A stretch of DNA of 64,000 bases from Oscillospiraceae bacterium (GTDB taxonomy: Bacteria > Bacillota > Clostridia > Oscillospirales > SIG627), in NCBI GenBank assembly GCA_015063605.1, contig SVTV01000011.1, forward strand, positions 1-64,000. Reading direction: 5' to 3'. A program made the translations under genes and the position numbers. Position 1 is the first letter of the stretch. Each line of letters begins with the position of its first letter. This document shows positions 17,813 through 49,466 of this stretch, piece by piece. Below the pieces are notes generated by a model. It made no database searches. It was given only the letters and a program-made list of their open reading frames with translations, and was not told the origin of the DNA.

Positions 17813-19210
17813 ATGGAATTGATAATTCTTTTCACCGTGATTGCGGTTCTTCTCTTTACGACGGTAATAGTTTTACTGTCAAGGTACAAAAAGTGTCCTT
17901 CTGACAAGATCATGGTAATTTACGGTAAGGTTGGCACAAACAGCGACGGAACCCAAAGAAGCGCCCGATGCATCCACGGCGGTGCGGCGTTTATATGGCC
18001 CGTGTTCCAGTCGTATCAGTATCTCGATCTTACACCCATATCCATCAGCGTAGATCTTAAGAACGCACTTTCCCGTCAGAATATCCGTATAGATGTTCCT
18101 TCACGTTTTACCGTTGGTATATCCACTGAAAGCGGTATAATGCAGAATGCTGCGGAAAGACTTTTGGGTCTCAAGATGGAAGAGGTACAGAGACTTGCCG
18201 AGGATATTATATTCGGTCAGCTCCGTCTTATCATCGCCACAATGGATATCGAAGAGATAAACACGGACAGAGATAAGTTCCTTGAAGCGGTCTCCGGAAA
18301 TGTTGAAACAGAGCTTAAGAAGATCGGTCTGCGCCTTATCAACGTTAACGTAACGGATATCGATGACGAATCCGGATATATCGTTGCTCTCGGTAAGGAA
18401 GCGGCTTCCAAGGCAATAAATGATGCGAAGGTATCCGTGGCACAGGCTGACAGAGCAGGCTCCATCGGTGCGGCAGAAGCTGAAAGAGACCAGAGAATAA
18501 ACGTATCCCGTTCAAACTCCGAGGCTATCGAGGGTGAAAACCAGGCTAAGGCGAAAATTGCGGAATCCGATGCTATCCGCCGTGAAAAGGAAGCGGAAGC
18601 CTTGAAGAGAGCTACAGCGGCTGAAAATATTCAGGCGGCAAAGGCTCAACAGGAATCCTATGCGGCTCAGCAGGAAGCGGAGCAGGCTCGTGCACTTCTT
18701 GAAAAGGCACGTCTTGAAGCCGATATCATCGTTAAGACGGAAATAGAAAAGAAACGCCTTGAGCTTCAGGCGGAAGCTGAAGCAGAACAGATACGCCGCA
18801 GAGCACGCGGTGAAGCCGATGCTATCAGAATGCGCCGTGAGGCGGAAGCTGTCGGTATGTATGAGATACTTTCAAAGCAGGCGGAAGGTTTTGCCAAGAT
18901 CGTGGATTCCGCAGACGGAAACTCCAATGCGGCTATCAAGCTTATGCTTGCCGATAAGATGGAAAAGCTCATATCCCTCCAGACAGAGGCTATAAAGAAT
19001 ATCAAGATAGACAAGGTCACCGTTTGGGACTCCGGTACGGCAGGAAAGGACGGAAAGAATTCCACAGCGGATTTCATTTCCGGAATAATGAAGTCTCTGC
19101 CTCCCATAAACGATATGCTCGATCTTGCGGGAATGCAGCTTCCCGAATATCTTGCACAGCCTAAAGGCGAAAGTGAAAATGCACCCTCTGAGGAAAACAA
19201 GGCTGAATAA
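17813..19210 (+). CDS. floT: Flotillin-like SPFH/band-7 protein (FloT/YuaG-type)
   Basis: N-terminal TM plus RYKKCPSDKIMVIYGKV SPFH start; long Ala/Glu-rich coiled-coil flotillin domain (AEAERDQRIN...EAEQARALLEKARLEAD). Confidence 0.8.
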   Translation: MELIILFTVIAVLLFTTVIVLLSRYKKCPSDKIMVIYGKVGTNSDGTQRSARCIHGGAAFIWPVFQSYQYLDLTPISISVDLKNALSRQNIRIDVPSRFTVGISTESGIMQNAAERLLGLKMEEVQRLAEDIIFGQLRLIIATMDIEEINTDRDKFLEAVSGNVETELKKIGLRLINVNVTDIDDESGYIVALGKEAASKAINDAKVSVAQADRAGSIGAAEAERDQRINVSRSNSEAIEGENQAKAKIAESDAIRREKEAEALKRATAAENIQAAKAQQESYAAQQEAEQARALLEKARLEADIIVKTEIEKKRLELQAEAEAEQIRRRARGEADAIRMRREAEAVGMYEILSKQAEGFAKIVDSADGNSNAAIKLMLADKMEKLISLQTEAIKNIKIDKVTVWDSGTAGKDGKNSTADFISGIMKSLPPINDMLDLAGMQLPEYLAQPKGESENAPSEENKAE

Positions 19211-19273
19211 TAAGAATTTATAAATCGATCCGTGATCCCCGCACAATATTGACCAATAAAATAAAGGTTTGTA

Positions 19274-19903
19274 TTGTACGGGGATCTTTTAAATGAAAAA
19301 GGTGTTATCATGAAAAATCAGAATTTCAGAATGTGGATAAATAATCTGTTGAAAGCGTTTCTTTCATTATTTATATGCGGTTTTGTGGGACAGCTTGCAT
19401 ATACCGTTTTCTTGAATACGAAGAACACAATGGCACCAAAGGAAGCGGAACCCGCTACGTCGATAGTAAGCTTTATAATATTTTTGATAGCTGTGTTCGT
19501 CATATATAAAATACAGGTTTTCGGAAGCCTTACGAATAAAGGCATTGATGAAAGAGAAATTCTTGAAAAAGCCTTTAGGGAAAATAATTACGAGATAGAC
19601 TATAATGCATATTTCAAAGATCAGGTGAAAAAGCGTCTTTGGAGTTATTACCTTGCGGCGGCGCTGGTTCAGATACCGCTGATTATAAATTATGCTCTTG
19701 TGAATGCTGTGAATATGACTCTTTACGAAGCGCCGATAGCTTTTTATAAGTTCTTCATGCCTTCACTTTTCGCATATCAGATGTGCGGAGACCTTTGGTT
19801 CTTGGGGGCATTAATATTTGTTTTGCTCTTCAGCGTTGTTTTCACAGCTCTTGTATACATAGAGCAAAAAAAGTGGCTTGTAAAACCGAGTTATCTGGAG
19901 TGA
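19274..19903 (+). CDS. Polytopic membrane protein, unknown function
   Basis: About 4 predicted TM helices; first gene of AT-rich island; probable start at 19311 (MKNQNF). Confidence 0.45.
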   Translation: MYGDLLNEKGVIMKNQNFRMWINNLLKAFLSLFICGFVGQLAYTVFLNTKNTMAPKEAEPATSIVSFIIFLIAVFVIYKIQVFGSLTNKGIDEREILEKAFRENNYEIDYNAYFKDQVKKRLWSYYLAAALVQIPLIINYALVNAVNMTLYEAPIAFYKFFMPSLFAYQMCGDLWFLGALIFVLLFSVVFTALVYIEQKKWLVKPSYLE

Positions 19904-20104
19904 ACCGGAAGAGATTCTTATTGTCCATATTGCAAAAAAAATTACGTGGTGTTCTTATAAAGATAATGAGTGAACAGAAAACTGTGGGTTTACATTATTG
20001 TGTTTTCTGTGGAATTTGAATTTTTAGAAAATTTAAAGAAGCGTATTTAAAATTTGTTGAGGAAAATAAAAAGCTGACAAGGGAATATACAGGGTAAGCA
20101 TCAG

Positions 20105-20701
20105 ATGAAAATAGAAGAAGTATTGATATTGCCGTCAATAGTATTGCTTATCATAGCATTGGCGCTTTATTACAGAGCATCATACACGCGCATATTTATA
20201 AAAAGATTAACTATGCGCAAGAAAATTAAAAAGCTCTGTAAAAAGAAAGGGTATAAATTACATCCTGCCCGTACTTTATGGTGGTTGGGAAGAAACAGCG
20301 GTACACGACCCGATTTTTATATAGCAACTAAGGAATATATAGTATCTGTTAAGCTTTTTGCATCGAAAACACGGCACGGTATTTTGATATTTGAACAAAA
20401 CGGAAGTTTTTACTTAAGAAAGTATATCGGTATCAGAATGTTGGGTAATTCATTTATTACACCGTATAAATCTATGCCGGGGAAATTACATAAGATATTT
20501 TTTAATTACGGTTTTAAGGATGAATGGTATACAAAAACTCCTATTAAGATAATGCTTTTGAATCCTACCCCTATGGAAGTAAGGGTTACGGGGGAAAACG
20601 GAAAAGAAAATGTTGTATCATCTTCACAGCAGTTATTCGGTGCATATATTTACTCACTCACGGGATTTTTATCCCGATTGGAAGCTATTGATGAAATCTG
20701 A
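20105..20701 (+). CDS. N-terminally membrane-anchored protein, possible PD-(D/E)xK / NERD-like nuclease fold (weak)
   Basis: Single N-terminal TM (ILPSIVLLIIALALYY) then soluble domain with ...RPDFYIATKEYIVSVKLF... D/E/K arrangement; very AT-rich coding sequence. Confidence 0.3.
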   Translation: MKIEEVLILPSIVLLIIALALYYRASYTRIFIKRLTMRKKIKKLCKKKGYKLHPARTLWWLGRNSGTRPDFYIATKEYIVSVKLFASKTRHGILIFEQNGSFYLRKYIGIRMLGNSFITPYKSMPGKLHKIFFNYGFKDEWYTKTPIKIMLLNPTPMEVRVTGENGKENVVSSSQQLFGAYIYSLTGFLSRLEAIDEI

Positions 20702-20746
20702 AAGCAACTTTTCGGCATGTAATGACCGAAAGAAAAGTACATTGAT

Positions 20747-22195
20747 ATGGAAAATCTCCACTTTTTAAATTACAATGAGACAGGTGCAAACAGTTCGGAA
20801 ATAATAGAGGATTGCTTTGCCGACGGAATGTTCAATGAAAATTTTTATAAAATTCTTTTATCCTCTGCGGGAAAAAGAGAGATCCTTAAACGTCAAAGTG
20901 TTTTCAGAGAAGCGGAAAACGAAGAATGCCTTTTGAAGCTTAGAAATGTTTATGAAGGAAGCATCGGAGTAAAGACAGCGTTAAAATGGGTTGAGCGGGC
21001 AAAAGGGGATTTGGAAAAGCAATGTATGCATCTGAAATTTTTGGATAGCTTTCTCAAGTCCGCTCGGACGCTTGCCGAGTTTTCCCAAAGCTCATGCGAG
21101 CCACTAAGAGAGATAGGCACTTTCTGGGATAATGAACTTAAAAAATATCCGCAGCTTTCAGATGATGTGAAGCGTATATCGGAAGGAATGAAAGAGTTTT
21201 TGACGGTCAATTTGGTGGAAAATGATGAACTTTGGATAACTCCCGATTACGGCAGTGTGTTTTATGTGGATATATTGAAGGATTGTGCCGATGCTCTCGG
21301 AGTTGAATGTCAATTACCTTTCGGAAAAGGAAGCATCAGAAGCCCATATTCTGATTTCCTTTCTCTCTTCGGCGGAAAAAGCGAGGCTGTCAGAGAGACT
21401 TTGGATAAATACACTTTTCTTTTGAAGGACAGCTCCGCAGAGCTTTTGGTGTCTTACGGAAGTGAGATAGATTTTTACCTGACATTTATTGATTTTAAAG
21501 AAAACAAAGGAAGCGCTCTGCCACTTTGCTATCCCGAAATATCTCACGAAAAGAAATTTTATGCAAAGGATGCTGCAGATATATCCCTTGTAGTTCAGAA
21601 CATACCGAAAATTGTGACTAACGATATATATATCGATGAAAGCGAACCGTTTTTCTTCATAGTAGGTGCCAACGGCGGAGGAAAGACATCCTATATTCGT
21701 GCTGTGGGAATAAATCTTCTTTTGTTTTTGGCGGGTTGTCCCATATTCGCAAGAGAAGCGCAAATATATCCGTTTGATAATGTGTTTACGCATTTTCCGA
21801 GAAACGAAAAGGAAGAAACCAAGGGCAGACTCAACGAGGAAACAGTCCGCATACAAAACTTATATGACGGCATGGGAAGAAATTCCGTCATTCTTCTTAA
21901 CGAGACTTTCTCTTCCGTGAGCGAGGAAAACGGTACGGAGCTTTCGTTGGATGCGGCGGAGAAAATACGTAATTCCGGCTGTTTCGGACTTTTTGTAACC
22001 CACTACAGAGATGTATGCTTCTCGGAATATCCCTATTTATCGGCGGAAATACAGAAAGGGAATGATAATAACGGCAGAACATTCAAAATAGTCAGAGAAA
22101 ATCGTGATCCGGAAGCGTATATCAATGATATATTGAGAAGATATCGTCTTGATGAAGAATCCTTGAATGTGAGAATTGCGGCGGAGGTAGAGTAA
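20747..22195 (+). CDS. MutS-core ATPase paralog 1 (MutS domains III-V only; no mismatch-binding, connector or Smr domains)
   Basis: MutS domain V Walker A FFFIVGANGGGKTSYIRAVGINLLLFLAGCPIFA (cf. MutS ITGPNMGGKSTYMRQ...AQIGSFVPA); MutS Walker B/signature region LLNETFSSVSEENGTELSLDAAEKIRNSGCFGLFVTHY. Confidence 0.7.
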   Translation: MENLHFLNYNETGANSSEIIEDCFADGMFNENFYKILLSSAGKREILKRQSVFREAENEECLLKLRNVYEGSIGVKTALKWVERAKGDLEKQCMHLKFLDSFLKSARTLAEFSQSSCEPLREIGTFWDNELKKYPQLSDDVKRISEGMKEFLTVNLVENDELWITPDYGSVFYVDILKDCADALGVECQLPFGKGSIRSPYSDFLSLFGGKSEAVRETLDKYTFLLKDSSAELLVSYGSEIDFYLTFIDFKENKGSALPLCYPEISHEKKFYAKDAADISLVVQNIPKIVTNDIYIDESEPFFFIVGANGGGKTSYIRAVGINLLLFLAGCPIFAREAQIYPFDNVFTHFPRNEKEETKGRLNEETVRIQNLYDGMGRNSVILLNETFSSVSEENGTELSLDAAEKIRNSGCFGLFVTHYRDVCFSEYPYLSAEIQKGNDNNGRTFKIVRENRDPEAYINDILRRYRLDEESLNVRIAAEVE

Positions 22196-23646
22196 TGGAA
22201 TTGAGCTTGATGAATCTTGCGGGAAACGAAGCGCCGAAATCTTGTATGACATTGTGTGATGCAACGAAAAGCGATATTTTGTTTTACAGATTTTTTGAAG
22301 CGCTGTCATGTGTCAACGGCAGAAAAGTAAGCGAACGTGAAGTGTTTTCCGATGCTTTGCGTAAATTGATGACACATCCTCTTTGTACAAAAGAAGAGAT
22401 AGTATACAGACAGGATGTTATTTGCGACTTTATTTCCGACAGAGCACTTTGGGACGGGTTTTATTCCTGCTTTTACCATTTGAATGAATGCAGAGAAGAG
22501 CTCAATGTAAAACTGAAAGAAAATATGGGAGCTTACAGAAACGCTTCAAATGCTATATTCAATGCATGCGGATATCTCAGAAGTGTAAGCTTTATATTGA
22601 AAAGAATACTTCTTATCATGAAAAGGCTTAAAAACGTTCTGGATAGCGGAAATTACAGGAGTGAAGGCTTGAAGCGTTTGCACGAATACGTTATTCCTTT
22701 TGATGACGGGAATGAAAAGCTCAAAGAACTTATTTCTGTTTGCGGAAGATTTGAAATGTTTACTTCCGAAGAAGAACGTGACCTACGCTTGGAGTTTGAC
22801 GATCAGGGATGCATACAAAAATTCGGACTTATAAACGAAAAATACGTAAAATTTACCGATCCCCGTTTGAAAGAGAAGAAGAGCTTTTTCAGGAAAAACA
22901 GCATCGGTGAAGTGTATCCTTCTGTGCGGGTTTCTCTTAACGAAGAAAAAGGCTGTGATGTAAAAGCAGTATCGGATATTTCCGATATGATGCAGGATAT
23001 ATCAAGAAGCATATTTGAATCCGTGGGAACTGTTTGCGACGAGAGAGATGTTTTTAAAGCAGTGCTGTTTTTGTATGATCTTCTTTCGGGTAAAAATATT
23101 CCCCTTTGCTTCCCGGAAGTCAACGAAGGCGAGTGTATATTGTACGAAAATCTTTACGACCCTTTTTTATCTCTTGACGGCGGTATAGAAGTGAAGCCGA
23201 GAACTTTTGCTTTTTCACGCAAAAAGGGGCTTATAGTTTGCGGAGATAACGGAAGCGGAAAGACATTTTTGCTCCGTTCTCTCGGAATGGCTCAGGTCAT
23301 GGCACAAAGCGGATTGTTTGTTACGGCGGAAAATGCCTGTATTAACCTGACAGAATGTGTGAAGACCATCTTTGCCGGCAAAGAAAACGAGAGAGTTAAA
23401 ACGGCAAATAAAGGCAGATTCGAACAGGAAGTCAAGCTCCTTTCCGATGCCGCAAGTGAGGATTCTCCGAGATCGCTTTTGCTTATAAATGAGATATTCC
23501 AATCTACGGATTATAAATTGGCTTCGAAAGCGATGGTTCCTATTTTGGGATTTTTGGCAAAAAAGGGGAACTGCTGTGCTATGGCTACACACCTTGATGA
23601 ACTGAAAATAAATTCCGCTTTTGATAATATAGAATTAAGGAGTTGA
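22195..23646 (+). CDS. MutS-core ATPase paralog 2 (domains III-V only)
   Basis: LIVCGDNGSGKTFLLRSLGMAQVMAQSGLFVTA Walker A; LLINEIFQSTDYKLASKAMVPILGFLAKKGNCCAMATHLDEL; lever-like region EEIVYRQDVICDFISD; TAATG start overlap with paralog 1. Confidence 0.7.
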   Translation: MELSLMNLAGNEAPKSCMTLCDATKSDILFYRFFEALSCVNGRKVSEREVFSDALRKLMTHPLCTKEEIVYRQDVICDFISDRALWDGFYSCFYHLNECREELNVKLKENMGAYRNASNAIFNACGYLRSVSFILKRILLIMKRLKNVLDSGNYRSEGLKRLHEYVIPFDDGNEKLKELISVCGRFEMFTSEEERDLRLEFDDQGCIQKFGLINEKYVKFTDPRLKEKKSFFRKNSIGEVYPSVRVSLNEEKGCDVKAVSDISDMMQDISRSIFESVGTVCDERDVFKAVLFLYDLLSGKNIPLCFPEVNEGECILYENLYDPFLSLDGGIEVKPRTFAFSRKKGLIVCGDNGSGKTFLLRSLGMAQVMAQSGLFVTAENACINLTECVKTIFAGKENERVKTANKGRFEQEVKLLSDAASEDSPRSLLLINEIFQSTDYKLASKAMVPILGFLAKKGNCCAMATHLDELKINSAFDNIELRS

Positions 23647-23652
23647 ATTATT

Positions 23653-24273
23653 ATGTCGAAAATACCAAATGATTTAAAACGTTTTTCTGTCAAGTGTGTA
23701 TTGAAAAGAGTAATTCCGTGCATTCTCGGAGAAATAGTATTGGGGATAATACTTTTTCTTTGGGGCGACAGAATATTTATGACGGATATTACTGAATTTA
23801 AGATAAGCTGTTATATCGTTGTTATGTGCATTCCTTTCGTGCTGACCGGTGTTCCGTTCAAACTTTTTGACCGAACCTTTTTCGGTAAGGTAAATAAAGT
23901 CAAGGTTGAAAGCGAACTGACTTCAACGGGAGTAAGTGCAGTCGAAATGAGAGGCTCGAAGGTTACCTTTTATGCAATACTTCAAATTACAGATGAGAAT
24001 GGAAATATATTCGACCGTAAGGTGAAGCTTGATAATTTGGATTCTGAGAGAAACAAAGATATTTTCGGAAAAAAATTAAGCGGAAATGGTGTAGACGTCA
24101 GCTTCAAAGCCGGGGACAGAGTGTTTCACTTGTTTGGAACAAACAATTTAGTTGTTTTACCCGAAGCGTCGGATACTACTGTTAAATGTGCGGTTTGCGG
24201 TCGTATCAATCCCGTGGAAAATAACGAATGCAGTAAATGCGGGCATACTTTGGTTAAAGAATTGCCGTTGTGA
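23653..24273 (+). CDS. Two-TM membrane protein with C-terminal CxxC-x12-CxxC zinc ribbon
   Basis: TM helices IPCILGEIVLGIILFLWG and YIVVMCIPFVLTGVPF; C-terminal KCAVCGRINPVENNECSKCGHTL; 7 bp downstream of MutS paralog 2. Confidence 0.55.
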   Translation: MSKIPNDLKRFSVKCVLKRVIPCILGEIVLGIILFLWGDRIFMTDITEFKISCYIVVMCIPFVLTGVPFKLFDRTFFGKVNKVKVESELTSTGVSAVEMRGSKVTFYAILQITDENGNIFDRKVKLDNLDSERNKDIFGKKLSGNGVDVSFKAGDRVFHLFGTNNLVVLPEASDTTVKCAVCGRINPVENNECSKCGHTLVKELPL

Positions 24274-24297
24274 CATATAAATCAATACTATCAATGT

Positions 24298-24420
24298 GAT
24301 TTTGTCGAAGGTTTCGATGAAAAAACGTCGAAGGTTTCGATAAAATTGTGTCAAAAACGTCGAAGGGTTCGACAAAATTGCGTCGAAAGCTTCGATAAAA
24401 TTGTGTCGAAGGTTTCGATA
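24298..24420. repeat. Array of five palindromic sites GTCGAAGGTTTCGA(T/C) (TCGAA-N3-TTCGA) with A-rich spacers, period about 23 bp
   Basis: Copies begin at about 24301, 24324, 24356, 24379, 24402; candidate operator array for a dimeric DNA-binding protein. Confidence 0.8.
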
Positions 24421-24489
24421 TTTCCCGGAATGCTTTGAATCGGTTAAATTTATTTACAACCCCGTTACAAAAAGTTTACAATTTTTCTG

Positions 24490-24518
24490 TTGACAAAAAC
24501 AAGTCCGTATGATACTAT
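24490..24518 (+). promoter_or_regulatory. Sigma70-like promoter TTGACA-17-TACTAT
   Basis: ttgacaaaaacaagtccgtatgatactat upstream of structured leader. Confidence 0.55.
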
Positions 24519-24567
24519 ATAGATGTAAGCTCAAATGCACTTTTGAGTTTTGGATCGGCATCATTTA

Positions 24568-24652
24568 CGAGATATTATCGCGCAAAGAGGTCAGGGTATA
24601 AGCAGAGAGAAAGTATCTCGTTTATGCAGTGTCTCTTTGCGCATTTTTGTAT
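24568..24652 (+). promoter_or_regulatory. Structured 5-prime leader with intrinsic-terminator-like hairpin immediately upstream of RBS (candidate riboswitch/attenuator)
   Basis: ATCGCGCAAAGAG (24577-24589) pairs with CTCTTTGCGCAT (24633-24644) followed by TTTTTGTATT; RBS GAAAGGGG lies downstream of the T-run; additional pairing CGAGATA / TATCTCG. Confidence 0.45.
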
Positions 24653-24669
24653 TATGAAAGGGGATTATT

Positions 24670-25401
24670 ATGAAAGATGACCTTAAACAGTTTTTAAAGA
24701 ATTTTTTGAAAAAGCTTCTTATATTCCTTGCCGTTGCAGGCGGCATAGTGCTTTTCTTTGTGATCTTTTATGCCATATTCCCAAGCGACGGAGGAAAAGG
24801 TGGCTGGGGATTTAAAAAGCCATCGGGGGGAGAAGCAATTTTAGCCAAGCCCGTTATATACCTCTATCCCGAAGAAACCACAGACGTAAAGGTTGAGCTT
24901 GATATAAGCGGAGAGCTTTACTGTACATATCCGAAGTATGAAGACGGTTGGGAAGTAACGGCGTACCCCGACGGTACTCTTGAAGATAAGAAGGACGGGA
25001 ATGAGTATTCATATCTCTTCTGGGATGCATACAGCGATATCGACTTCGATCTTTCCCGTGGATTTGTTGTAAAGGGAGAAGATACGGCGGAGTTTTTACG
25101 TGATACTTTAAGTAAAATGGGACTTTTGCCGAAGGAATACAATGAATTTATAGTATATTGGCTTCCCTTAATGGAGAAAAACGATTATAATTTTATTACG
25201 TTCCAGAAAGAAGCGTATACGGATAATGCAAAGCTTGATATAACGCCCGCACCCGACAGTATTCTTCGTGTTTACATGGTTTATACTGCCGTTGATGAAG
25301 ATGACGTTAAGAAATACGAGGGAATTGAAGCTCCCAAAATAAAAGGCTTTGAGCGTAAAGGCTTTACGGTAGTTGAATGGGGCGGTTCCGAAATTAAGTA
25401 A
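24670..25401 (+). CDS. N-terminally membrane-anchored extracytoplasmic protein, unknown function
   Basis: Single TM LLIFLAVAGGIVLFFVIFYAIF then Gly-rich linker and soluble domain. Confidence 0.5.
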   Translation: MKDDLKQFLKNFLKKLLIFLAVAGGIVLFFVIFYAIFPSDGGKGGWGFKKPSGGEAILAKPVIYLYPEETTDVKVELDISGELYCTYPKYEDGWEVTAYPDGTLEDKKDGNEYSYLFWDAYSDIDFDLSRGFVVKGEDTAEFLRDTLSKMGLLPKEYNEFIVYWLPLMEKNDYNFITFQKEAYTDNAKLDITPAPDSILRVYMVYTAVDEDDVKKYEGIEAPKIKGFERKGFTVVEWGGSEIK

Positions 25402-40848: not shown

Positions 40849-40992
40849 CTTTAAGACCATTCCTTTTCTGTAAGGCGGGATGACTTTTTATATCATTACT
40901 CCGTGCCTCATATAATTATACACAAAATAAACGGGAAAGTCAATCGAGGTTTGTTATAACGTAAAAAAAATTGCAAATTTTTTTGAAAAACA

Positions 40993-41024
40993 TGTCACAA
41001 AATGCCTTCCTGAATTGTATATAT
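40993..41024 (+). promoter_or_regulatory. Candidate ECF-sigma-type promoter, copy 1: TGTCACAAA-N11-AATTGTATATAT
   Basis: tgtcacaaaatgccttcctgaattgtatatat, about 120 bp upstream of the sigma factor gene; same motif with identical 20-bp spacing recurs at 42440. Confidence 0.5.
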
Positions 41025-41144
41025 ATACAGAAGCGGAAAACTATTTTCGATAAATGCAATATTCACAGTATCTACATTGATTTTCTAATGTTATTGCGTT
41101 ATAATTTAACCGAGACCTTTAATACTTGTCAAACCGAGGGAACG

Positions 41145-41720
41145 ATGTTACTGTTTTTATTGCTTTTGGAAGAATCGGAAAGAAAGCCCGTGGAGTTTCT
41201 TTACAACAAATACTGCAGATATATGTATCAGACAGCATACAACATTTTGGGTAATAATATTGCTGCGGAGGATGCGGTGCATAACGCTTTTGTCGCCATA
41301 ATTAATAATTTGGACGGAATAAAATACGGACTTGAAAAGGAGCTTGAAGATCCGGATTCCGACTATCTTTTGGGATACGTTTGCCGTGCCGCTAAAAATT
41401 GCGCTTTGAATATTAAAGCGAAAAAAGACAAGATATCCCGCCGTGAAACATCGTATCCGGAGGATGATACTCTCCTCGGCGATATTGAAATGTGCGATAA
41501 AATAATAGCCGATGAAAGCGTTATGCGTATAAAAAATTGCATAAAAAAGCTTCCCGAAATATACAGGGACATTTTCGTTATGCACTTTATCGGAGAAATG
41601 TCCTATAAAGAAATAGGAAAATTGCTTTCACTTCCCCAAGCAACAATAAGAAAACGCATCGAGCGCGGCAAAGTAAAGCTTGCGGAAGAATTGAAAAAGG
41701 AAGGGTTTGATATAAAATGA
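41145..41720 (+). CDS. ECF-subfamily RNA polymerase sigma-70 factor
   Basis: Region 2 (AEDAVHNAFVAIINN) and region 4 HTH (MSYKEIGKLLSLPQATIRKRIERGKVKL); start at ATG 41145 behind GAGGGA SD. Confidence 0.8.
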   Translation: MLLFLLLLEESERKPVEFLYNKYCRYMYQTAYNILGNNIAAEDAVHNAFVAIINNLDGIKYGLEKELEDPDSDYLLGYVCRAAKNCALNIKAKKDKISRRETSYPEDDTLLGDIEMCDKIIADESVMRIKNCIKKLPEIYRDIFVMHFIGEMSYKEIGKLLSLPQATIRKRIERGKVKLAEELKKEGFDIK

Positions 41721-42403
41721 ACAAAGCTGATGAAAAAATAGCCTTAGCTTTGGCGCAGGTGGATGCGGAAGAGTTTAAAAATATGGATATGACCGCCGCC
41801 GATAATTGGGTACCGTCGGAAAAGTTTGAAAAGAAGATAGGAAAGCTTCTGAAACATCGGAAAGAACCGTTTATTAAAATTGCGGGTAACGCAAGAAAAC
41901 GCTTTGCGGCTGTAGCATGTGCGTTTCTTGTTTTTTTCGGTGCCGCCATGAGCGTGGAGGCGTCGAGGGAGTTTATAGTGGGATTTGTTGTTGATATATA
42001 TGAAAATATATCTAAGTTTGCATTCGAAAATCCGGAAGGAGCAAATGCTCCCAAAGAAATAGAAATAAGATACTATCCGGAATATATTCCGGACGAATAT
42101 GAATTGAGAGAAACGAAAGAGTCAAGATTTCGCAATGAAATTGTATTTTATAACAAGAAAGATCAAGCTTTGATATATACACAATATTTGATTGATTCAA
42201 TTTCGATCTCGCTTGATACAGAGGATGTTAACATAAATGAAATAAAAATCGGTGATTATTCCGGGTATTACTATATAAGTAAAGAATTAATAAATATTAT
42301 ATGGAAAACTGATGAGTATGTTTTCTATATCAGCGGCGATGAAAATATAACTTTAGATGCGCTTATTGAGATGGCTGAAAGCTTAAAGGCGGAAGAAAAA
42401 TAA
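41717..42403 (+). CDS. Membrane-anchored anti-sigma-factor-like protein (DUF4367-type)
   Basis: ATGA overlap with sigma gene; single TM (FAAVACAFLVFFGAAMSV) followed by extracytoplasmic domain; classic Clostridial ECF partner layout. Confidence 0.55.
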   Translation: MNKADEKIALALAQVDAEEFKNMDMTAADNWVPSEKFEKKIGKLLKHRKEPFIKIAGNARKRFAAVACAFLVFFGAAMSVEASREFIVGFVVDIYENISKFAFENPEGANAPKEIEIRYYPEYIPDEYELRETKESRFRNEIVFYNKKDQALIYTQYLIDSISISLDTEDVNINEIKIGDYSGYYYISKELINIIWKTDEYVFYISGDENITLDALIEMAESLKAEEK

Positions 42404-42439
42404 TTTTTTTCAAAAAAATTGAAATTTTTTCTAAAAATA

Positions 42440-42471
42440 TGTCACAAACTGTTTTTCGTAATTGTATATAT
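42440..42471 (+). promoter_or_regulatory. Candidate ECF-sigma-type promoter, copy 2
   Basis: tgtcacaaactgtttttcgtaattgtatatat, about 90 bp upstream of secreted-protein gene 42562. Confidence 0.5.
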
Positions 42472-42561
42472 GGTTAGAGGGACAAAAAATGCTTTTGAAT
42501 TGTTTTTTCAATGAACAAGTATATATGTTTCCTCTAATACATAGCAAAGGAGGAAAACGTT

Positions 42562-43008
42562 ATGCGCACAAGAAAAAGAATTCTGTTTCTGGCTATGGCA
42601 GTTTTTATGATTGCAAACTGCTTTTTGCCGTTTACGGTAAATGCGGCACTTCCGGAAGATAATCTTGTATCGCCTTTGGCAAACAATGTTCGTAATGTCT
42701 CATCATCATTTGATATAATGAACGGAGTTGCTGAAATCGAAGCATCTTACATAGGTTATCAAGGAACAACAACGGGAGCTACTATTACGGTCAAGTTACA
42801 GAAAAAGTTTTTGTTCTGGTGGAATGACGTTGACAACGGTCAACCCGATGACACTTGGACAGCAAACTTAACGGGATGGAAAAATTCTGTCTCATACTCT
42901 CTCGCGTTGAGCAATACGGGAGATTACCGCGCAGTGTTTACGTACACTATCCGCGGTACGGGTGGAGCGGACGATGAAATATCGGATACTCTTGAGTATA
43001 CTTATTAA
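42562..43008 (+). CDS. Small secreted protein, unknown function
   Basis: Signal peptide MRTRKRILFLAMAVFMIANCFLPFTVNA. Confidence 0.5.
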   Translation: MRTRKRILFLAMAVFMIANCFLPFTVNAALPEDNLVSPLANNVRNVSSSFDIMNGVAEIEASYIGYQGTTTGATITVKLQKKFLFWWNDVDNGQPDDTWTANLTGWKNSVSYSLALSNTGDYRAVFTYTIRGTGGADDEISDTLEYTY

Positions 43009-43110: not shown

Positions 43111-43575
43111 ATGAAAAAATCAGTAAGATTTATTGCAATCGCACTTGCGTTTTGCACGGTTTTCAGTATAGTGGCATTTGCTATACAGGTAGATGGGGTA
43201 CACAGTTATGGTGTATTTGTGAACAATGGTACTTCGGTAGATTGCCACGGATATTTGTATTCTAACATTATCCATTTCCCCGAAGACGATGAAATGGTTG
43301 AAGTTTGGGCTTCTACAGAGGTTTCCCAAAGAACGGCTAATATGGGGACAATATCGGTGAGCTGCACTTTCCACACGGTTGGTGGTGCTGTTATTGATAC
43401 ACATAATGCCTCAACAACCCAAAACCGTATAGCGAGTACTCTTAATGATCCTGTAGTAGGTCCGCTTCTTGCATTGGCGGAAGCTGTACACAAAGTGGAA
43501 TATATTAATGACGCTGATGTTTCTTTGATTTGGAGCGGGGAAACTTCAAAGCAACTTAGAGATTACTTAGTATAA
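43111..43575 (+). CDS. Small secreted protein, unknown function
   Basis: Signal peptide MKKSVRFIAIALAFCTVFSIVAFA; start moved to ATG 43111. Confidence 0.5.
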   Translation: MKKSVRFIAIALAFCTVFSIVAFAIQVDGVHSYGVFVNNGTSVDCHGYLYSNIIHFPEDDEMVEVWASTEVSQRTANMGTISVSCTFHTVGGAVIDTHNASTTQNRIASTLNDPVVGPLLALAEAVHKVEYINDADVSLIWSGETSKQLRDYLV

Positions 43576-43684
43576 TGTATTGACCTTATTAAGTAACTAA
43601 AGGTATAATACACTTTGGACTTGCCGACAAGTTAGTCGGCAAGTCCTTGGTTGTAACAATTATAGAAAGGGGAGTGAATTACCC

Positions 43685-44962
43685 ATGAAAAGAACATTTT
43701 TGATTTGTATTTCTATGATGTTTATATTCTCATGCTTTTCTTGCACGAGGCAGGAGCTGCCGTATATTTCGGAAGAAGCACCAAAAACACTAGATACCGA
43801 TGTTGTACAAGTATATTCATACGATCCGACAGATGACGGACTTGAAAACGTAAGATTTCCTGAGGTGTATATTACCAATGCAGGATTGTATTACAGTGAC
43901 GGTGAGTTGTATTTCAGATCAAGCGATATGTATTATAAATATAATAAAGAAACAGGAGATTTTTTGCCTTTTTGTAAGGATCCCGTATGCGATCATAGAA
44001 CGCTTGAGTGTCCATTTTATGGTAATACATTTTCGTGCTTTTACATTCATGACGAAAATATTATTTATTTGCAAGACACTCCCGATTTGGAGCACATTTC
44101 CGGATCCAATACGCTTAACATATATGATGTTGAAAAAGACAAAAGAAGAATACTGCATTACTATGACTCTGACTCAAATATGATGAGCTCGAATATGACC
44201 TTCTATAAGGATGAATTGTTATTTACCGATATAGTAAAAGATGAAAAAACAGAAGAATATATATATTCGCTGTGCGCAGTAAACTTAAAAACGGGTAAAA
44301 AACGTATTTTGTTGAGTGAAGCGTGGATGATAGCAGCACTAATGTCAGATGATGGCGGCGTTTACTATACGGACTTAAAGGAACAAAAAAATATATATGC
44401 CAAAAATAATGATCTAAAAGATACGGAAGAACTTCCGTTTTACAATACAAGATTCTTTTTTGTTGGTGATAAAGTTATCTACGTAGATAATAATGGATAC
44501 TTAACTTCTTCTGATAGGTACGGAAATAACAAAAAGAGTTTGGGGATATCCGATATAGACAGTTTCTTTGTAACGGATAAATATATATATTACAGGCACA
44601 ACGGTACCACAAATATAGGAAAAACAATTGAACAGACGGGAAGAGGAGAAAAAATAGAACAAACTATGGAGTTGAATGTCAATTCCATATACAGATGTAA
44701 TCACGACGGAAGCAATATTGAAGAAGTGATAAAGTTCTATGACGGCGAACCTCTTGAAGCGGGGGAAAGTGTGTACTATTCTCAAAGAATGTTTATACTT
44801 TCCGGTTATTATTATACTAAGTATGATCGTCTTATAATGGGTGAAGACGGATATCTTGTGTCTGACACCGGCGATAAAAAGTTCAATAATTATCTCCGTA
44901 TAAACATTGAAACCGGCGAAAAGTATATTATAAAGGTTCCGAATATTTACGTTAACCATTAA
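43685..44962 (+). CDS. Paralogous Cys-motif lipoprotein family member 1 (possibly beta-propeller, DUF5050-like)
   Basis: Lipobox FSCFSC; conserved CKDPVCDHRTLECPF, YSLCAVNLKTGKKR, YRCNHDGSNIEEVIKFYDGEPLEAG, NYLRINIETGEKYIIKVPNIYVNH. Confidence 0.7.
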   Translation: MKRTFLICISMMFIFSCFSCTRQELPYISEEAPKTLDTDVVQVYSYDPTDDGLENVRFPEVYITNAGLYYSDGELYFRSSDMYYKYNKETGDFLPFCKDPVCDHRTLECPFYGNTFSCFYIHDENIIYLQDTPDLEHISGSNTLNIYDVEKDKRRILHYYDSDSNMMSSNMTFYKDELLFTDIVKDEKTEEYIYSLCAVNLKTGKKRILLSEAWMIAALMSDDGGVYYTDLKEQKNIYAKNNDLKDTEELPFYNTRFFFVGDKVIYVDNNGYLTSSDRYGNNKKSLGISDIDSFFVTDKYIYYRHNGTTNIGKTIEQTGRGEKIEQTMELNVNSIYRCNHDGSNIEEVIKFYDGEPLEAGESVYYSQRMFILSGYYYTKYDRLIMGEDGYLVSDTGDKKFNNYLRINIETGEKYIIKVPNIYVNH

Positions 44963-45224
44963 AAGTAAGGCTTGCCGATTTGCGGCAAGCCTTTGAAAAA
45001 ATCGGCTTTGGATTATCAAGAAAAGTGAAACAAAAGTAGTTTTCGATTTGTTATATACATATAAGTGAATTGAATTATAAAATAATCAAAAAACGGCAAG
45101 GTTTACAAATTGTTCATTGACTGTATTTGCGATATATAGTATAATGATACTATGGTATAATAACACATCCGGTATTTGTGCGTCGGTAAAACCATTCAAT
45201 ACTATCGGAGCGAAAGGAGTTACT

Positions 45225-46487
45225 ATGAAAAGAACAATATTAATAGTTATCAGCGCAATATTTGTCTTATCCTGCTTTTCCTGCACTAGGCAGGAATTAC
45301 CGTATCTTTCAGAAGAGATGACGAAAAATGACGGTTTTTCACAAGTATATTCATACACCCCGACCGATGACGGACTTGAAAACGTAATTTTCAGCGGCGT
45401 GTATATGGCATCGAACGATTTATACTACAATGATGGTAATATGTATTTGTGTTCGGCAGATATGTACTACAAAATTGACCTTGAAACGGGAAGACTTACA
45501 ACATTGTGTAAAGACCCGGTGTGCAATCATAAAACATGGGAGTGTCCTTTGCACGGGCAAACCTCGTATTTTTACGTTTTCGGAAAAGATTTTATTTCCA
45601 GACAGTACACATTGATCGGAGGAGAGCGTTTGTTAACGCTTAATCACTTTGATATCGAAAAATCAGTAAGAAAAGTGCTGCATAACTTTAATATGAATTC
45701 AAGTAAACTGATCGAGAACAGGACACTTTACAATGATGAATTATTATTCGTAGATGTTATAAAGGATGAAAAAACAGAAGAGTACATATATTCACTCTGT
45801 GCCGTAAATATAAGAACCGGAAAAAAACGTGTAATGGTACGTGATGCATGGAGAATAACACCTTTAATGGCTGACGAGGGCGGTGTGTACTACTCCGACT
45901 TGAAGGAACAATATTATTTTTATGCAAGAAACAACGATCTTGACGACAGAGAGATACTTCCTTTCTATGCAGTGGCGTTTTATTTAGTGGGGGATAAGAT
46001 AATTTACGAAGACAAAGATGGCTGCCTGATATATTCTGACAGAGACGGAAAAAACAAGATTAATTTGAATATAAAGGGTGTAGACGATTTCTTTGTAACC
46101 GATAACTACGTATATTACCGATATGAGGGAAAAACAAATATTGGAAAAATGCTAACACGAACAGGTCCGGGAAAAACAGAAGAAGTAACGATAGAATTGA
46201 ATATGAATTCCATATACAGATGCAGTCACGACGGAAGCAATGTTGAAGAAGTGATAAGGTTCCATGACGGCGAACCTCTTGAAGCAGGGGAGACCGTGTA
46301 CTATTCTCAAAATATGTTTATACTTTCCGGTTATTACTATACCGGGCTTTTAAGTTATACAATGGGTGAAGACGGATATCTTACAGGAGACCGAGGCGAT
46401 GACAAATGTCGCAATTATCTCCGTATAAACATTGAAACCGGCGAAAAGTATATTATAAAAGTACCGAATATTTACGTTAACCATTAA
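45225..46487 (+). CDS. Paralogous Cys-motif lipoprotein family member 2
   Basis: MKRTILIVISAIFVLSCFSCTRQELPY; CKDPVCNHKTWECPL; same C-terminal motifs; start at ATG 45225 behind AAAGGAG. Confidence 0.7.
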   Translation: MKRTILIVISAIFVLSCFSCTRQELPYLSEEMTKNDGFSQVYSYTPTDDGLENVIFSGVYMASNDLYYNDGNMYLCSADMYYKIDLETGRLTTLCKDPVCNHKTWECPLHGQTSYFYVFGKDFISRQYTLIGGERLLTLNHFDIEKSVRKVLHNFNMNSSKLIENRTLYNDELLFVDVIKDEKTEEYIYSLCAVNIRTGKKRVMVRDAWRITPLMADEGGVYYSDLKEQYYFYARNNDLDDREILPFYAVAFYLVGDKIIYEDKDGCLIYSDRDGKNKINLNIKGVDDFFVTDNYVYYRYEGKTNIGKMLTRTGPGKTEEVTIELNMNSIYRCSHDGSNVEEVIRFHDGEPLEAGETVYYSQNMFILSGYYYTGLLSYTMGEDGYLTGDRGDDKCRNYLRINIETGEKYIIKVPNIYVNH

Positions 46488-46687
46488 AAGTAAGGCTTGC
46501 CGATTTGCGGCAAGCCTTTGAATGAACATTTAAACAATCAAAAAGAACAGAAAAACGGCAAAGTTTACAAATTGTTCATTGATTTTCTTTGCATAATGTT
46601 GTAAAATGATAATGAGATGTTAAAGCACATCCAAATTTTGCACATCGGCAAAAATATCAGAAGCCATTGAAGCGAAAGGAGACCCCC

Positions 46688-47956
46688 ATGAAAAAAATAT
46701 TTTTAATTCTTGTTAGTGTAATACTTGTGTTTTCTTGCGTTTCATGCAAGAGAGAAGAATTGCCGTATTTAACGGAACCTGTAAAAATAGGTGATAATTT
46801 TTCCGAGGTATATACATACGCACCAAATGATGATTCATTAATGAATGTTACATTTCCGGAGTCATTCATACACAATTTAGGATTAGCGTACTACGAAGAT
46901 GAATTGTATCTTGAGTCTCATGACATGGTATACAAAATCAATCTTGAAACCGGAAAACTTACGACCTTGTGTAAAGATCCTATATGCAATCATAGAACAA
47001 AAGAATGTCCTTTTTTTGATTTGTATTCTTATTTTTACATTTTTGATAATAATGTGATTTATTATAGAGATAACACTGTAGTTGAAAAAAATAATATTAC
47101 CAGCAATCTCACAATCGCTTTCTATGATATTAAGAAAAGTAAGTTTTACACACTTTACGAATTTAGCTCCAAACAAAATACTTTCTCGTACAATATGACG
47201 TTATATAATGATGAACTGATGTTTACTGATATAATCCGTGACGAAAAAACAAACGAAAGGACCCATACTTTGTATGCTTTGAACGTAAAAACACGTAAAA
47301 AGAGAGTATTATACAAAGGAGTTCCGCGATACTCCGCTATAACTGCCGATGAAAACGGAGTTTATTATTCTGACAGAGTGAGCGGAAAACATTTGTATGC
47401 CAAAGATAACGATTTGAAAAAAGCTGTAGAGCTTCCTTATAGTTTAGGGTTCACGATAAACGGAAAGATTATTCACAAGACAGACCACACAACTCTTTCT
47501 TCTACACTTGCTTCATATGATTTGAAAACAAATGAATCCAAAGACCTTGGATTAGGTGAAGTAGAGACGTACTTTGTGACAGACAAATACATATATTTCA
47601 GACCGACAGGGGAAATTGATATAGGAAAATTGAAAACCCAGAGCGGGCCGGATCGTGTTTACATAGATCCTTTGATAGATAACTTTAATTCCATTTACAG
47701 ATGTAATCATGATGGAAGTAATGTTGAAGAAGTGATAAAGTTCTATGACGGGGATGTTCAGACGGGAGAGAGTGTGTACTATATTTCGGGAATATTCGTT
47801 TTGGACGGATACTTATATTCGCCTTACTTTAAGTACACCAAACAGGAGGACGGATATTTCACTAATAAGGATGAAGACCCGGATAATGACAAGTACCTCA
47901 GAATAAATATCGAAACAGGAGAAAGATATATAATAAAAACGCCGAGAATGTTTTAA
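46688..47956 (+). CDS. Paralogous Cys-motif lipoprotein family member 3 (most diverged)
   Basis: MKKIFLILVSVILVFSCVSCKREELPY; CKDPICNHRTKECPF; YRCNHDGSNVEEVIKFYDG; ends ...LRINIETGERYIIKTPRMF. Confidence 0.7.
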   Translation: MKKIFLILVSVILVFSCVSCKREELPYLTEPVKIGDNFSEVYTYAPNDDSLMNVTFPESFIHNLGLAYYEDELYLESHDMVYKINLETGKLTTLCKDPICNHRTKECPFFDLYSYFYIFDNNVIYYRDNTVVEKNNITSNLTIAFYDIKKSKFYTLYEFSSKQNTFSYNMTLYNDELMFTDIIRDEKTNERTHTLYALNVKTRKKRVLYKGVPRYSAITADENGVYYSDRVSGKHLYAKDNDLKKAVELPYSLGFTINGKIIHKTDHTTLSSTLASYDLKTNESKDLGLGEVETYFVTDKYIYFRPTGEIDIGKLKTQSGPDRVYIDPLIDNFNSIYRCNHDGSNVEEVIKFYDGDVQTGESVYYISGIFVLDGYLYSPYFKYTKQEDGYFTNKDEDPDNDKYLRINIETGERYIIKTPRMF

Positions 47957-48069
47957 TATGCGATTTTGAAAAAATCGGCTTTGGATTTTCAAGAAAAGTG
48001 AAACATAACACATCCGGTATTTGTGCGTCGGTAAAACTATTCAATACTATCGGAGCGAAAGGAGTTACT

Positions 48070-49341
48070 ATGAAAAGAGCATTATTAATACTCATCAGCG
48101 CAATATTTGTCTTATCCTGCTTTTCTTGCACAAGGCAAGAGCTGCCGTATCTTTCGGAAGAAGCACCAAAAACACTAAATACCGATGTTGTACAAGTATA
48201 TTCATACGATCCGACAGATGACGGACTTGAAAACGTAAGATTTCCTGAGGTGTATATTACCAATGCAGGATTGTATTACAGTGACGGTGAGTTGTATTTC
48301 AAATCAAGCGATATGTATTATAAATATAATATAGAAAGGGGAAATATGTCACCTTTTTGTAAGGATCCTATATGCAATCACAAAACATCGGAGTGTCCTT
48401 TTTACGGTTATATATTTGACGGTTTTTACATTTACGAAGGTAACATTATTTATACACAAAGAGTTCCGATTGGTGAAGATCGTTCCGAAACTCTAAACAT
48501 ATATGATGTAGAGAAAGACGAAAGAAGAATATTGCATCATTTTGATATGAAATCAAGCAGAAGAACTACCAATATGACTTTTTATAACGGAGAATTGTTA
48601 TTTACCGATATAGTAAAAGATGAAAAAACGGAAGAATATATATATTCGCTGTGCGCAGTAAACTTAAAAACGGGTAAAAAACGTATTTTATTAAGTGAGG
48701 GATGGCAGATGTCTGCGCTTATGTCAGATGAAAACGGTGTGTATTACGGAGATGTAAAAAATAAGAAGCTGATATATGCGAGAAATAATGATTTTAATGA
48801 CACAGAAGAGCTTCCGTTTTACAATACACAATTTTATTTTGTCGGGGATAAAGTTATCTACGTAGATAATAATGGATACTTAACTTCTTCTGATAGGTAC
48901 GGAAATAACAAAAAGAATTTGGGGATATCCGATATAGACAGTTTCTTTGTAACGGATAAATATATATATTACAGGCACAACGGTACCACAAATATAGGAA
49001 AAACAATTGAACAGACGGGACGAGGAGAAAAAATAGAACAAACTATGGAGTTGAATGTCAATTCCATATACAGATGCAGCCACGACGGAAGCAATATTGA
49101 AGAAGTGATAAAGTTCTATGACGGTGAACCTCTTGAAGCGGGGGAAAGTGTGTACTATTCTCAAAGTATGTTTATACTTTCCGGATATTATTATACTAAG
49201 TATGATCGTCTTATAATGGGCGAAGACGGATATCTTGTGTCTGACACCGGCGATAAAAAGTTCAATAATTATCTCCGTATAAACATTGAAACCGGCGAAA
49301 AGTATATTATAAAAGTGCCGAATATATACGTAAATCATTGA
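48070..49341 (+). CDS. Paralogous Cys-motif lipoprotein family member 4 (near-identical to member 1 at both ends)
   Basis: MKRALLILISAIFVLSCFSCTRQELPY; about 500 bp at the 3-prime end and about 270 bp at the 5-prime end are about 97 percent identical to member 1 at DNA level. Confidence 0.7.
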   Translation: MKRALLILISAIFVLSCFSCTRQELPYLSEEAPKTLNTDVVQVYSYDPTDDGLENVRFPEVYITNAGLYYSDGELYFKSSDMYYKYNIERGNMSPFCKDPICNHKTSECPFYGYIFDGFYIYEGNIIYTQRVPIGEDRSETLNIYDVEKDERRILHHFDMKSSRRTTNMTFYNGELLFTDIVKDEKTEEYIYSLCAVNLKTGKKRILLSEGWQMSALMSDENGVYYGDVKNKKLIYARNNDFNDTEELPFYNTQFYFVGDKVIYVDNNGYLTSSDRYGNNKKNLGISDIDSFFVTDKYIYYRHNGTTNIGKTIEQTGRGEKIEQTMELNVNSIYRCSHDGSNIEEVIKFYDGEPLEAGESVYYSQSMFILSGYYYTKYDRLIMGEDGYLVSDTGDKKFNNYLRINIETGEKYIIKVPNIYVNH

Positions 49342-49466
49342 TTTTGAATAATGACCGTTGTGACACTATAAAACAAACCGGCAGCACTACCGTTTTTGGT
49401 ATTGCTGCCGATCTGCTTGTTTTCAGGAGTGATTATTTATATTGAGAAATTACCGTGATAAGATCA

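Follow-up and report, generated by a model that had tools for sequence, protein, structure and literature searches.

Introduction

Beta-propellers of the DUF5050 type are common in gut Firmicutes. Their Pfam family, DUF5050 (PF16472), is named 'LRP1-like_beta_prop' in newer Pfam releases, and its prototype is Protein Data Bank (PDB) entry 3s25, the EUBREC_1955 protein of Eubacterium rectale. Here, we describe a tandem array of four genes for predicted lipoproteins of this type, designated m1 to m4, in a window of 64,000 nucleotides from an uncultured gut bacterium of the Clostridia (Ruminococcaceae/Oscillospiraceae; assembly GCA_015063605.1, contig SVTV01000011.1, positions 1 to 64,000 of the forward strand), together with the wider protein family to which the four belong. 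The array had been singled out in an earlier reading of the window made from its letters and open reading frames (ORFs), hereafter the sequence-only reading, as a set of mosaic paralogues that share a motif of three Cys residues and one His.

Several described systems resemble this family in part. The match between the family profile and 3s25 covers the blades only (profile positions 202-345), and no alignment was reported to the family's N-terminal segment of ~70 residues, which carries the loop with the three Cys and one His (Cys3His loop). Only 23 of 60 family members reach the DUF5050 model at E<=0.01, and m3 is not one of them. The YWTD propellers of LRP6, LRP4 and LDLR are built from the same type of blade (Foldseek E ~5e-8, profile ~5e-6). 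However, they are eukaryotic, six-bladed and flanked by EGF domains, they share only 9-13% identity with the family, and they have neither a lipid anchor nor the Cys3His loop. Lantibiotic immunity systems combine a LanI lipoprotein with a LanFEG ATP-binding cassette (ABC)-2 transporter. The layout of a surface lipoprotein with an ABC-2 transporter is shared with the family described here, as is a regulatory context of the envelope-stress type, in this case an extracytoplasmic function (ECF) sigma factor. This likeness is one of analogy only: no relationship to LanI was found in sequence or fold, the permease of the family is a single fused protein of ~800 amino acids, and no bacteriocin genes were identified nearby.

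Two bacterial propellers also resemble the family in part. BtuG, a surface propeller lipoprotein of Bacteroides (PMC6143338), shows a generic propeller similarity to the family, but it comes from another phylum, has a TonB-dependent partner and lacks the Cys3His loop. TsgL of the T7SSg system (bioRxiv 10.1101/2024.01.30.577966) is likewise a DUF5050 propeller beside a membrane export machine in Bacillota. Unlike in T7SSg, no EssC-like ATPase or WXG100 genes were present among the Pfam-scanned genes of the window and the sampled loci, and the apparent partner here is of the ABC-2 type. From the analysis that follows, we modestly favor the reading that m1 to m4 belong to a family of surface ligand-binding, probably metal-stabilized lipoproteins that partners an ABC-2 system, and that in this organism the family has been amplified and homogenized by gene conversion.

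Results

Four tandem predicted lipoproteins with a conserved Cys3His loop

The array consists of four tandem + strand ORFs, each preceded by a ribosome-binding site of the form AAAGGAG/GGGGAG. They are m1 (43685-44962, 425 aa), m2 (45225-46487, 420 aa), m3 (46688-47956, 422 aa), which is the most diverged copy, and m4 (48070-49341, 423 aa), which is a three-way mosaic. All four are intact, full-length and translatable, and at the protein level m2, m3 and m4 are 62%, 47-48% and 85% identical to m1, respectively. Each protein begins with an MK(R/K) n-region and a hydrophobic stretch, as judged by hydropathy scan, followed by (V/I)(L/F)SC-FSC, such that the signal peptide ends in FSCFSC or FSCVSC. 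In FSCFSC, either of the two Cys residues could be the lipidated one. We thus classify m1 to m4 as predicted membrane-anchored lipoproteins, that is, as putative substrates of signal peptidase II. The motif CKDP[VI]C[DN]H[RK]TxECP is present in all four and is encoded at 43973-44014 in m1, 45507-45548 in m2, 46970-47011 in m3 and 48358-48399 in m4 (all on the + strand). The ORF calls and the alignment therefore bear out the earlier description of four consecutive lipoproteins with an FSCFSC/FSCVSC lipobox and a Cys/His motif. The further conserved blocks quoted in that description are exact in m1, m2 and m4, but they have diverged in m3 (THTLYALNVKTRKKR; ...DGD-VQTGE; ...ERYIIKTPRMF).

In the NCBI annotation, m2 is a protein of 447 aa (cluster P0004) that starts 27 codons upstream of the ATG at 45225. 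This N-terminus has probably been mis-called, because the ATG at 45225 has a ribosome-binding site and aligns with the starts of the paralogues.

Pfam DUF5050 is matched by m1, m2 and m4 at 34.7, 37.4 and 34.3 bits, respectively, against a gathering threshold of 27. By itself m3 has no Pfam hit, and it scores 323.7 bits against the hidden Markov model (HMM) of the family. Comparison of structural models with known folds revealed a roughly seven-bladed propeller like that of 3s25. Thus, the mature m1 to m4 proteins are ~7-bladed beta-propellers of the DUF5050 type, and the suggestion of such a propeller in the sequence-only reading is supported by the Pfam, profile and fold hits alike. No NCBIfam family matched the lipoproteins or the small secreted proteins encoded upstream of them.

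To define the family, we scanned 1.84 billion cluster representatives in full with HMMER and obtained 217 relatives at E<=1e-3, of which 81 also pass E<=1e-10. These proteins almost always have a lipobox and a length of 400-450 aa. A word-indexed homologue search returned only 5-8 proteins, even with an alignment of 60 sequences as the query. The members come from metagenomes and metagenome-assembled genomes, and where a source is named it is Clostridia, Eubacteriales or Ruminococcaceae. Among 86 aligned members, which are 20-30% identical to m1, the loop residues are nearly or fully invariant (C97 in 85/86, C102 in 86/86, H104 in 85/86 and C109 in 86/86), and their neighbors D99, P100 and P110 are conserved in 95%, 94% and 88% of the proteins. 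The lipobox Cys is present in all 86, with Leu at position -3 in 74% and Ser at position -1 in 71%, and no Cys other than those of the loop and the lipobox is invariant. The signature of the family is therefore the loop C-x-D-P-[LVI]-C-x-H-x4-C-P, which is its most conserved feature. Conservation of the Cys/His motif in homologues, on which the sequence-only reading had staked its claim, is thus 99-100% in this set. A disulfide between C197 and C338 was also considered and was rejected, as neither residue is conserved and the two show no co-variation (Fisher p=0.26).

The structural model places the loop in the coil that connects strand 93-95 with strand 114-122, before the first well-predicted blade. 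A sequence search of the PDB with a profile of the close paralogues yielded only a chance-level match to the TRIM29 B-box (E 0.82), and no relative in the PDB spans the loop. Given that the Cys3His set is invariant in secreted proteins of strict anaerobes, its simplest reading would be a structural zinc site.

The family is linked to an ABC-2 permease

A related-locus search with 10 sequences returned four genome loci (L012 to L015), and the window's own genome was not among them. In all four, a single family gene is followed directly by a gene for a polytopic membrane protein of ~800 aa, which in L013 and L014 is split into proteins of 449 and 360 aa. In L012, the order is sigma factor, anti-sigma-like protein, lipoprotein, permease and ABC ATPase, and the lipoprotein gene overlaps both the anti-sigma-like gene before it and the permease gene after it. 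Examples of the permease genes are found at L012:9095-11503 and L015:7517-9934.

To keep the sample free of bias towards particular neighbors, metagenomes were scanned with the back-translated Cys loop, which returned 120 loci, 85 of them with a family member. The ~800-aa membrane protein is encoded in 47 of these 85 loci and in 21 of the 23 whose lipoprotein block is flanked on each side by 1 kb or more. In the well-flanked loci, the permease gene mostly lies 0-30 nt away or is separated from the block only by the ABC ATPase gene. At least two family copies are present in 26 of the 85 loci. The largest of these arrays, in L055, L085, L117 and L132, hold as many as five or six, and the paralogues within these other arrays are mostly 25-62% identical. 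An ABC ATPase gene is found in the same operon in ~25 loci, and ECF sigma genes are likewise found in ~25. These observations show tight linkage of the family to an ABC-2 transporter, and an ECF sigma factor is often linked as well.

The permease is internally duplicated, each half comprising one transmembrane (TM) helix, a helical domain of ~170 aa and about five more TM helices. Its Pfam matches are weak, namely ABC2_membrane_3 in 3 of 10 members (5e-8) and ABC2_membrane_4 in 2 of 10 (3e-5), and it has no relative in the PDB by sequence. The ~800-aa protein looks like an uncharacterized family of fused double ABC-2 permeases.

Mosaic structure of the array

Overall DNA identity is 86.7% between m1 and m4, 69.8% between m1 and m2 and 70.7% between m2 and m4, and m3 is 55-59% identical to the other three. 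The sequence-only reading had reported near-identity between m1 and m4 at both ends of the genes. At the 3' end, we observed 483 of 500 identical positions (96.6%) between 44462-44962 and 48842-49341, as described. At the 5' end, there is indeed a nearly identical tract of ~190 nt (43760-43950, 187/191), but the claim of about 270 bp was an overstatement, as the first 270 nt of the coding sequences are only 90% identical. The tract is shorter than claimed because the 5' untranslated region (5'UTR) and signal-peptide region of m4 resemble those of m2 rather than those of m1 (88-92% identity, and 92% over 157 nt in repeat D8). In addition to this m2-like beginning, m4 is m1-like over codons 29-85, 186-215 and 263 to the end, and the remainder is distinct. 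The longest exact run shared by m1 and m4 is 123 nt, compared with a mean of 38 and a maximum of 92 in 10,000 permutations (p<=1e-4).

We calculated the divergence of the individual m1 and m4 tracts by the Nei-Gojobori method. Synonymous divergence (dS) is low, at 0.00, 0.33 and 0.135, in codons 29-85, 186-215 and 263-431, respectively, and high, at 1.04 and 1.18, in codons 1-28 and 86-185; in codons 216-262 it is saturated. Synonymous sites are largely blind to constraint at the protein level. The alternation of dS therefore indicates that the tracts differ in age, a pattern characteristic of gene conversion or segmental exchange. Thus, the m1/m4 mosaic is genuine and is recombinational rather than selective in origin, and the sharp contrast in dS upholds the earlier proposal of recent duplication and gene conversion. 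In the divergent tracts, the ratio of nonsynonymous to synonymous divergence (dN/dS) is 0.20-0.23, indicating that these are old alleles under purifying selection and not hypervariable segments. The description of the family as rapidly diversifying consequently does not hold, as no sign of positive selection was observed there.

Bacteria often carry paralogue arrays shaped by gene conversion, and the present array arose by amplification followed by gene conversion. Whereas a related lineage has one copy, here the gene was amplified to four, and the copies were then partly homogenized by non-reciprocal exchange of segments of ~100-500 bp. Candidate specificity determinants are the variable m1/m4 tracts (residues ~86-185 and 216-262), which span the blades after the Cys loop.

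Eleven metagenome contigs carry the locus. In L002 (Logan SRR27391364, 468-1751), which comes from a more distant lineage, a single lipoprotein gene lies between a homologue of the second small secreted protein and the HMGL-like gene that marks the downstream end of the array in the window, and these flanking genes are 70-82% identical to those of the window. The copy number therefore varies between lineages within the same flanking genes. The L002 gene is itself a patchwork, with segments 96-99% identical to m2 (~135-220 nt) and 94-98% identical to m1/m4 (~90-135 nt), and after the Cys loop it is ~50% identical to every copy in the window. This patchwork represents either inter-lineage exchange or an artefact of assembly at k=31. 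Another contig, L004, matches m4 at 100% identity up to a switch point and m1 at 100% identity beyond it. It was rejected as evidence of recombination, since the switch falls inside at least 120 nt that are identical in both genes, as in an assembly chimera. In L008 (ENA ERZ27248351, 2340-2756), a spacer of the m3-m4 type follows m3 and joins a coding sequence of the m2 type, the switch falling within ~40 identical nt. This suggests that L008 is a better candidate than L004 for a genuine recombinant variant of the array.

Hairpins, spacers, promoters and base composition

The sequence-only reading had also described shared hairpins and duplicated intergenic DNA. A stable hairpin, AAGGCTTGCCG-ATTTG-CGGCAAGCCTT (-19.5 kcal/mol, z ~-5), with a stem of 11 bp, is present after m1 (44967-44993, + strand), and an identical one is present after m2 (46492-46518, + strand); this hairpin was not found after m3 or m4, so that the sharing is limited to the first two copies. 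A further hairpin (49379-49410, + strand) follows m4 at the point where the AT-rich block ends, and its sequence differs from that of the m1 and m2 hairpins. Duplication of the intergenic DNA is likewise partial. The candidate promoter of m3 lies within a duplicated segment (D6), but the short spacer between m3 and m4 (47957-48069, + strand) has neither the hairpin nor the promoter segment and looks like a version of the m1-m2 spacer that has undergone a deletion.

Candidate sigma-70-like promoters on the + strand precede m1 (43580-43609, TTGACC-18-TATAAT, 11/12 matches), m2 (45117-45145, TTGACT-17-TATAAT, 11/12 matches) and m3 (46579-46607, TTGATT-17-TAAAAT, 9/12 matches), and none was found before m4. 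The m3-m4 spacer, with no hairpin and no promoter, suggests that m4 is co-transcribed with m3. Between the m1 promoter and m1 is a further hairpin of 12 bp (43617-43646, + strand; -25.5 kcal/mol, z -6.2), which may stabilize the m1 mRNA at its 5' terminus or, overlapping the promoter, may be the terminator of the gene before it.

An RNA structure common to the 5'UTRs of m2, m3 and m4 was considered and rejected. The fold z-scores of these regions are 0 to -1.3, and their conservation therefore stems from duplication and not from RNA structure. The sole match in an Rfam scan of 40.0-50.5 kb was to GlmZ and, at 25.9 bits, fell below the gathering score of 60; we treat it as chance.

The array is AT-rich relative to its flanks, as the sequence-only reading had stated, with a GC content of 0.34-0.39 compared with ~0.43-0.50. 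The AT-rich block is larger than the array, however, and extends over 41.0-49.4 kb to include the upstream sigma, anti-sigma and small-protein genes.

The upstream module and the flanking genes

Upstream of the array on the + strand are four genes. The first (41145-41720) encodes an ECF-type factor of the sigma-70 family (191 aa; Pfam Sigma70_r4_2 2.3e-15, Sigma70_r2 1.4e-4), with 73.8 bits against a cutoff of 42.9 for NCBIfam TIGR02937 sigma70-ECF. The second (41717-42403), whose start overlaps the sigma stop codon, encodes an anti-sigma-like membrane protein (228 aa) with a TM helix at residues 62-80 by hydropathy scan and a C-terminal DUF4367 domain (Pfam 2.7e-17). These are followed by genes for two small secreted proteins, each with a signal peptide: small protein 1 (42562-43008, 148 aa), which has no family hit, and small protein 2 (43111-43575, 154 aa). 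Homologues of small protein 2 occupy the same position relative to the lipoprotein gene or genes in L002 (phmmer 1.1e-40) and L117 (32% identity, 1.2e-16). The two small proteins show no similarity to each other or to the 121-aa protein found upstream in loci of the L017 type.

An element of ~60 nt, AAATTG.AAATTTTTT..AAAAA.ATGTCACAAA.TG..TT....AATTGTATATAT, occurs upstream of the sigma gene (40955-41030, + strand) and again upstream of small protein 1 (42400-42475, + strand), the two copies being 82% identical. The exact 10-mer ATGTCACAAA is found only at these two sites in the 64 kb. It is plausible that the ATGTCACAAA...AATTGTATATAT element is an autoregulated promoter or operator dependent on the ECF sigma factor. 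An ECF-type promoter ahead of the lipoprotein genes was also considered, and it was rejected because the conserved ATGTCACAAA element is absent there.

The array is part of a larger module, overlooked in the sequence-only reading, made up of the ECF sigma factor, the DUF4367 anti-sigma protein, the two small secreted proteins and the lipoproteins. Homologues of the window's anti-sigma protein sit upstream of family arrays in L095 and L117, and L117 (1191-13315, minus strand) repeats the gene order of the window within a complete module. It encodes a DUF4367 anti-sigma protein (27% identical), a secreted protein of 135 aa, a protein of 154 aa (the small protein 2 homologue) and four lipoproteins, one of which is frameshifted, and continues with a permease (812 aa), a fifth lipoprotein and an ABC ATPase.

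The flanks of the module in the window are ordinary chromosomal genes, with a GntR regulator on one side and the HMGL-like enzyme and an oxidoreductase on the other, and no tRNA was found in the window. A second AT-rich block at 19000-25000 (GC 0.35-0.40) also contains several ORFs without a family hit. Within it are two tandem paralogues of ~482 aa (20747-22195 and 22195-23646) that match only MutS domain V.

Discussion

The family shares its operons with a permease and often also with an ATPase and an ECF sigma/anti-sigma pair, and its members are therefore most likely binding subunits of an ABC-2 system. In the mechanism that we favor, the propeller would be tethered to the outer face of the membrane, where it would bind a ligand or the extracytoplasmic domains of the permease. 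The lipoproteins, present as one to about six paralogues, would provide an envelope-associated ABC-2 system, whether for transport, extraction or resistance, with exchangeable binding subunits on the extracellular side, and multiple paralogues would widen its specificity. In Firmicutes, ECF sigma factors respond mostly to envelope stress, and the module may handle an envelope-related substrate or stress. The locus in the window keeps the front, regulatory half of such a module, consisting of the ECF sigma factor, the DUF4367 anti-sigma protein, the two small secreted proteins and the array; m1, m2 and m3 would be transcribed from their own sigma-70-like promoters and m4 would be read through from m3. 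Since no transporter is encoded in the 64 kb, the lipoproteins of the window would either use a transporter encoded elsewhere or act alone.

Several observations weigh against this reading. The permease HMM has no hit in the 64-kb window at E<=10, nor has the ABC ATPase of L015, used as a phmmer query, at E<=1e-5. The array thus lacks an adjacent permease gene on the same strand, and the ABC-2 link is missing from L002 as well. The transporter link is, moreover, one of guilt by association, and many of the metagenome loci probably come from related organisms, several of them clearly so (e.g., L041, L046, L053, L066, L113 and L137), so that the independent lineages are fewer than the raw counts and fall below 21/23. 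The Cys3His loop probably binds a structural metal, most likely Zn2+, but this is read from conservation, and the loop is modeled with a predicted local distance difference test score (pLDDT) of only ~70. Annotation offers little guidance, as family members are recorded at source as 'hypothetical protein' or DUF5050, and the literature on DUF5050 is nearly empty, its sole functional mention being that of TsgL in a variant of type VII secretion (bioRxiv 10.1101/2024.01.30.577966). Finally, the hairpins after m1 and m2 have no U-tract on the + strand, which leaves the transcription units uncertain, and some of the apparently recombinant contigs, such as L004, may be assembly chimeras.

The linkage to the permease bears directly on two other explanations. 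The lipoproteins could be stand-alone proteins that capture a nutrient, cofactor or glycan in the manner of BtuG, independently of any ABC-2 system. We consider this unlikely, because the match to BtuG is that of a generic propeller (13% identity, rank 32), no cofactor or carbohydrate genes are linked to the family, and the permease with which the family is associated is of the exporter type rather than an importer with a binding protein. Alternatively, they could be signaling partners of the ECF sigma/anti-sigma pair that bind an envelope signal and relay it to the DUF4367 domain. The presence of ECF sigma genes in ~25 family loci, the overlap of the L012 lipoprotein gene with the end of the anti-sigma-like gene and the anti-sigma homologues upstream of the arrays in L095 and L117 are all in line with such a role. 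However, linkage to the permease (21/23) is much more consistent than linkage to the sigma factor, the conserved promoter-like element precedes the sigma gene and small protein 1 rather than the lipoprotein genes, and a sensor accessory protein would not usually be present as four to six paralogues, which makes a signaling role rather improbable. An enzymatic role, in which the Cys3His set would be a catalytic metal center of an extracellular enzyme, is the least probable of the explanations considered. It would account for the invariance of the cluster alongside D99 and P100, and the fold hits do include oligogalacturonate lyase and the propeller domains of prolyl-oligopeptidases. Nevertheless, four protein ligands are generally typical of a structural and not a catalytic zinc site, the motif lies in an N-terminal loop and not at the predicted center of the propeller, and sequence searches linked the proteins to no enzyme family.

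The mosaic structure of the array bears on the proposal, made in the sequence-only reading, that such lipoproteins often mediate host, phage or substrate interaction or antigenic variation. In an antigenic- or phase-variation system, the paralogues would be switched or recombined by a programmed mechanism to evade phage, host immunity or competitors. In favor of such a system, the proteins are tandem surface lipoproteins with mosaic segments, the m3-to-m2-like junction of L008 indicates that the population may hold recombinants, and L002 carries segments 96-99% identical to copies in the window between flanks of only 70-82%. Against it stand the dN/dS of ~0.2 in the divergent tracts and the state of the genes themselves, all four being full-length with ribosome-binding sites and three having promoter-like sites of their own, with no truncated cassettes. 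Neither inverted repeats bracketing the promoters nor simple-sequence tracts were found, no recombinase or integrase is encoded among the few flanking genes that were scanned with Pfam, and tRNA genes are absent from the window. No anti-phage defense model of PADLOC-DB is hit at E<=0.01 by the lipoproteins, the small proteins, the anti-sigma protein or the permease, and the arrays at other loci are old, as the divergence of their paralogues attests. Programmed antigenic or phase variation is accordingly very unlikely.

We therefore retain the reading of a surface binding family that partners an ABC-2 system. A bolder form of it, which we put forward tentatively and regard as possible rather than probable, is that the lipoproteins are interchangeable specificity subunits of an undescribed, ECF-controlled ABC-2 system in uncultured gut Clostridia, the blades at residues ~86-185 and 216-262 being reshuffled as cassettes among paralogues and even among lineages. 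If so, the system would be widespread and might serve, for example, in the interception of bacteriocins or antimicrobial peptides or in the extraction of an envelope ligand, and the near-identical segments shared by L002 and the window despite their diverged flanks would represent real exchange between lineages.

This is not a new class of system, and the function that we propose for it is one that we infer. Even so, both the gene-neighborhood rule and the Cys3His signature seem to be undescribed in Pfam, NCBIfam, PADLOC and the searchable literature, and together they define a coherent subfamily of ~420-aa proteins and give a domain of unknown function a hypothesis that can be tested. The array in the window offers a clean natural example of a surface-protein family that shows concerted evolution through gene conversion. 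As a natural 'transporter-less' variant, it could also show whether these lipoproteins act alone.

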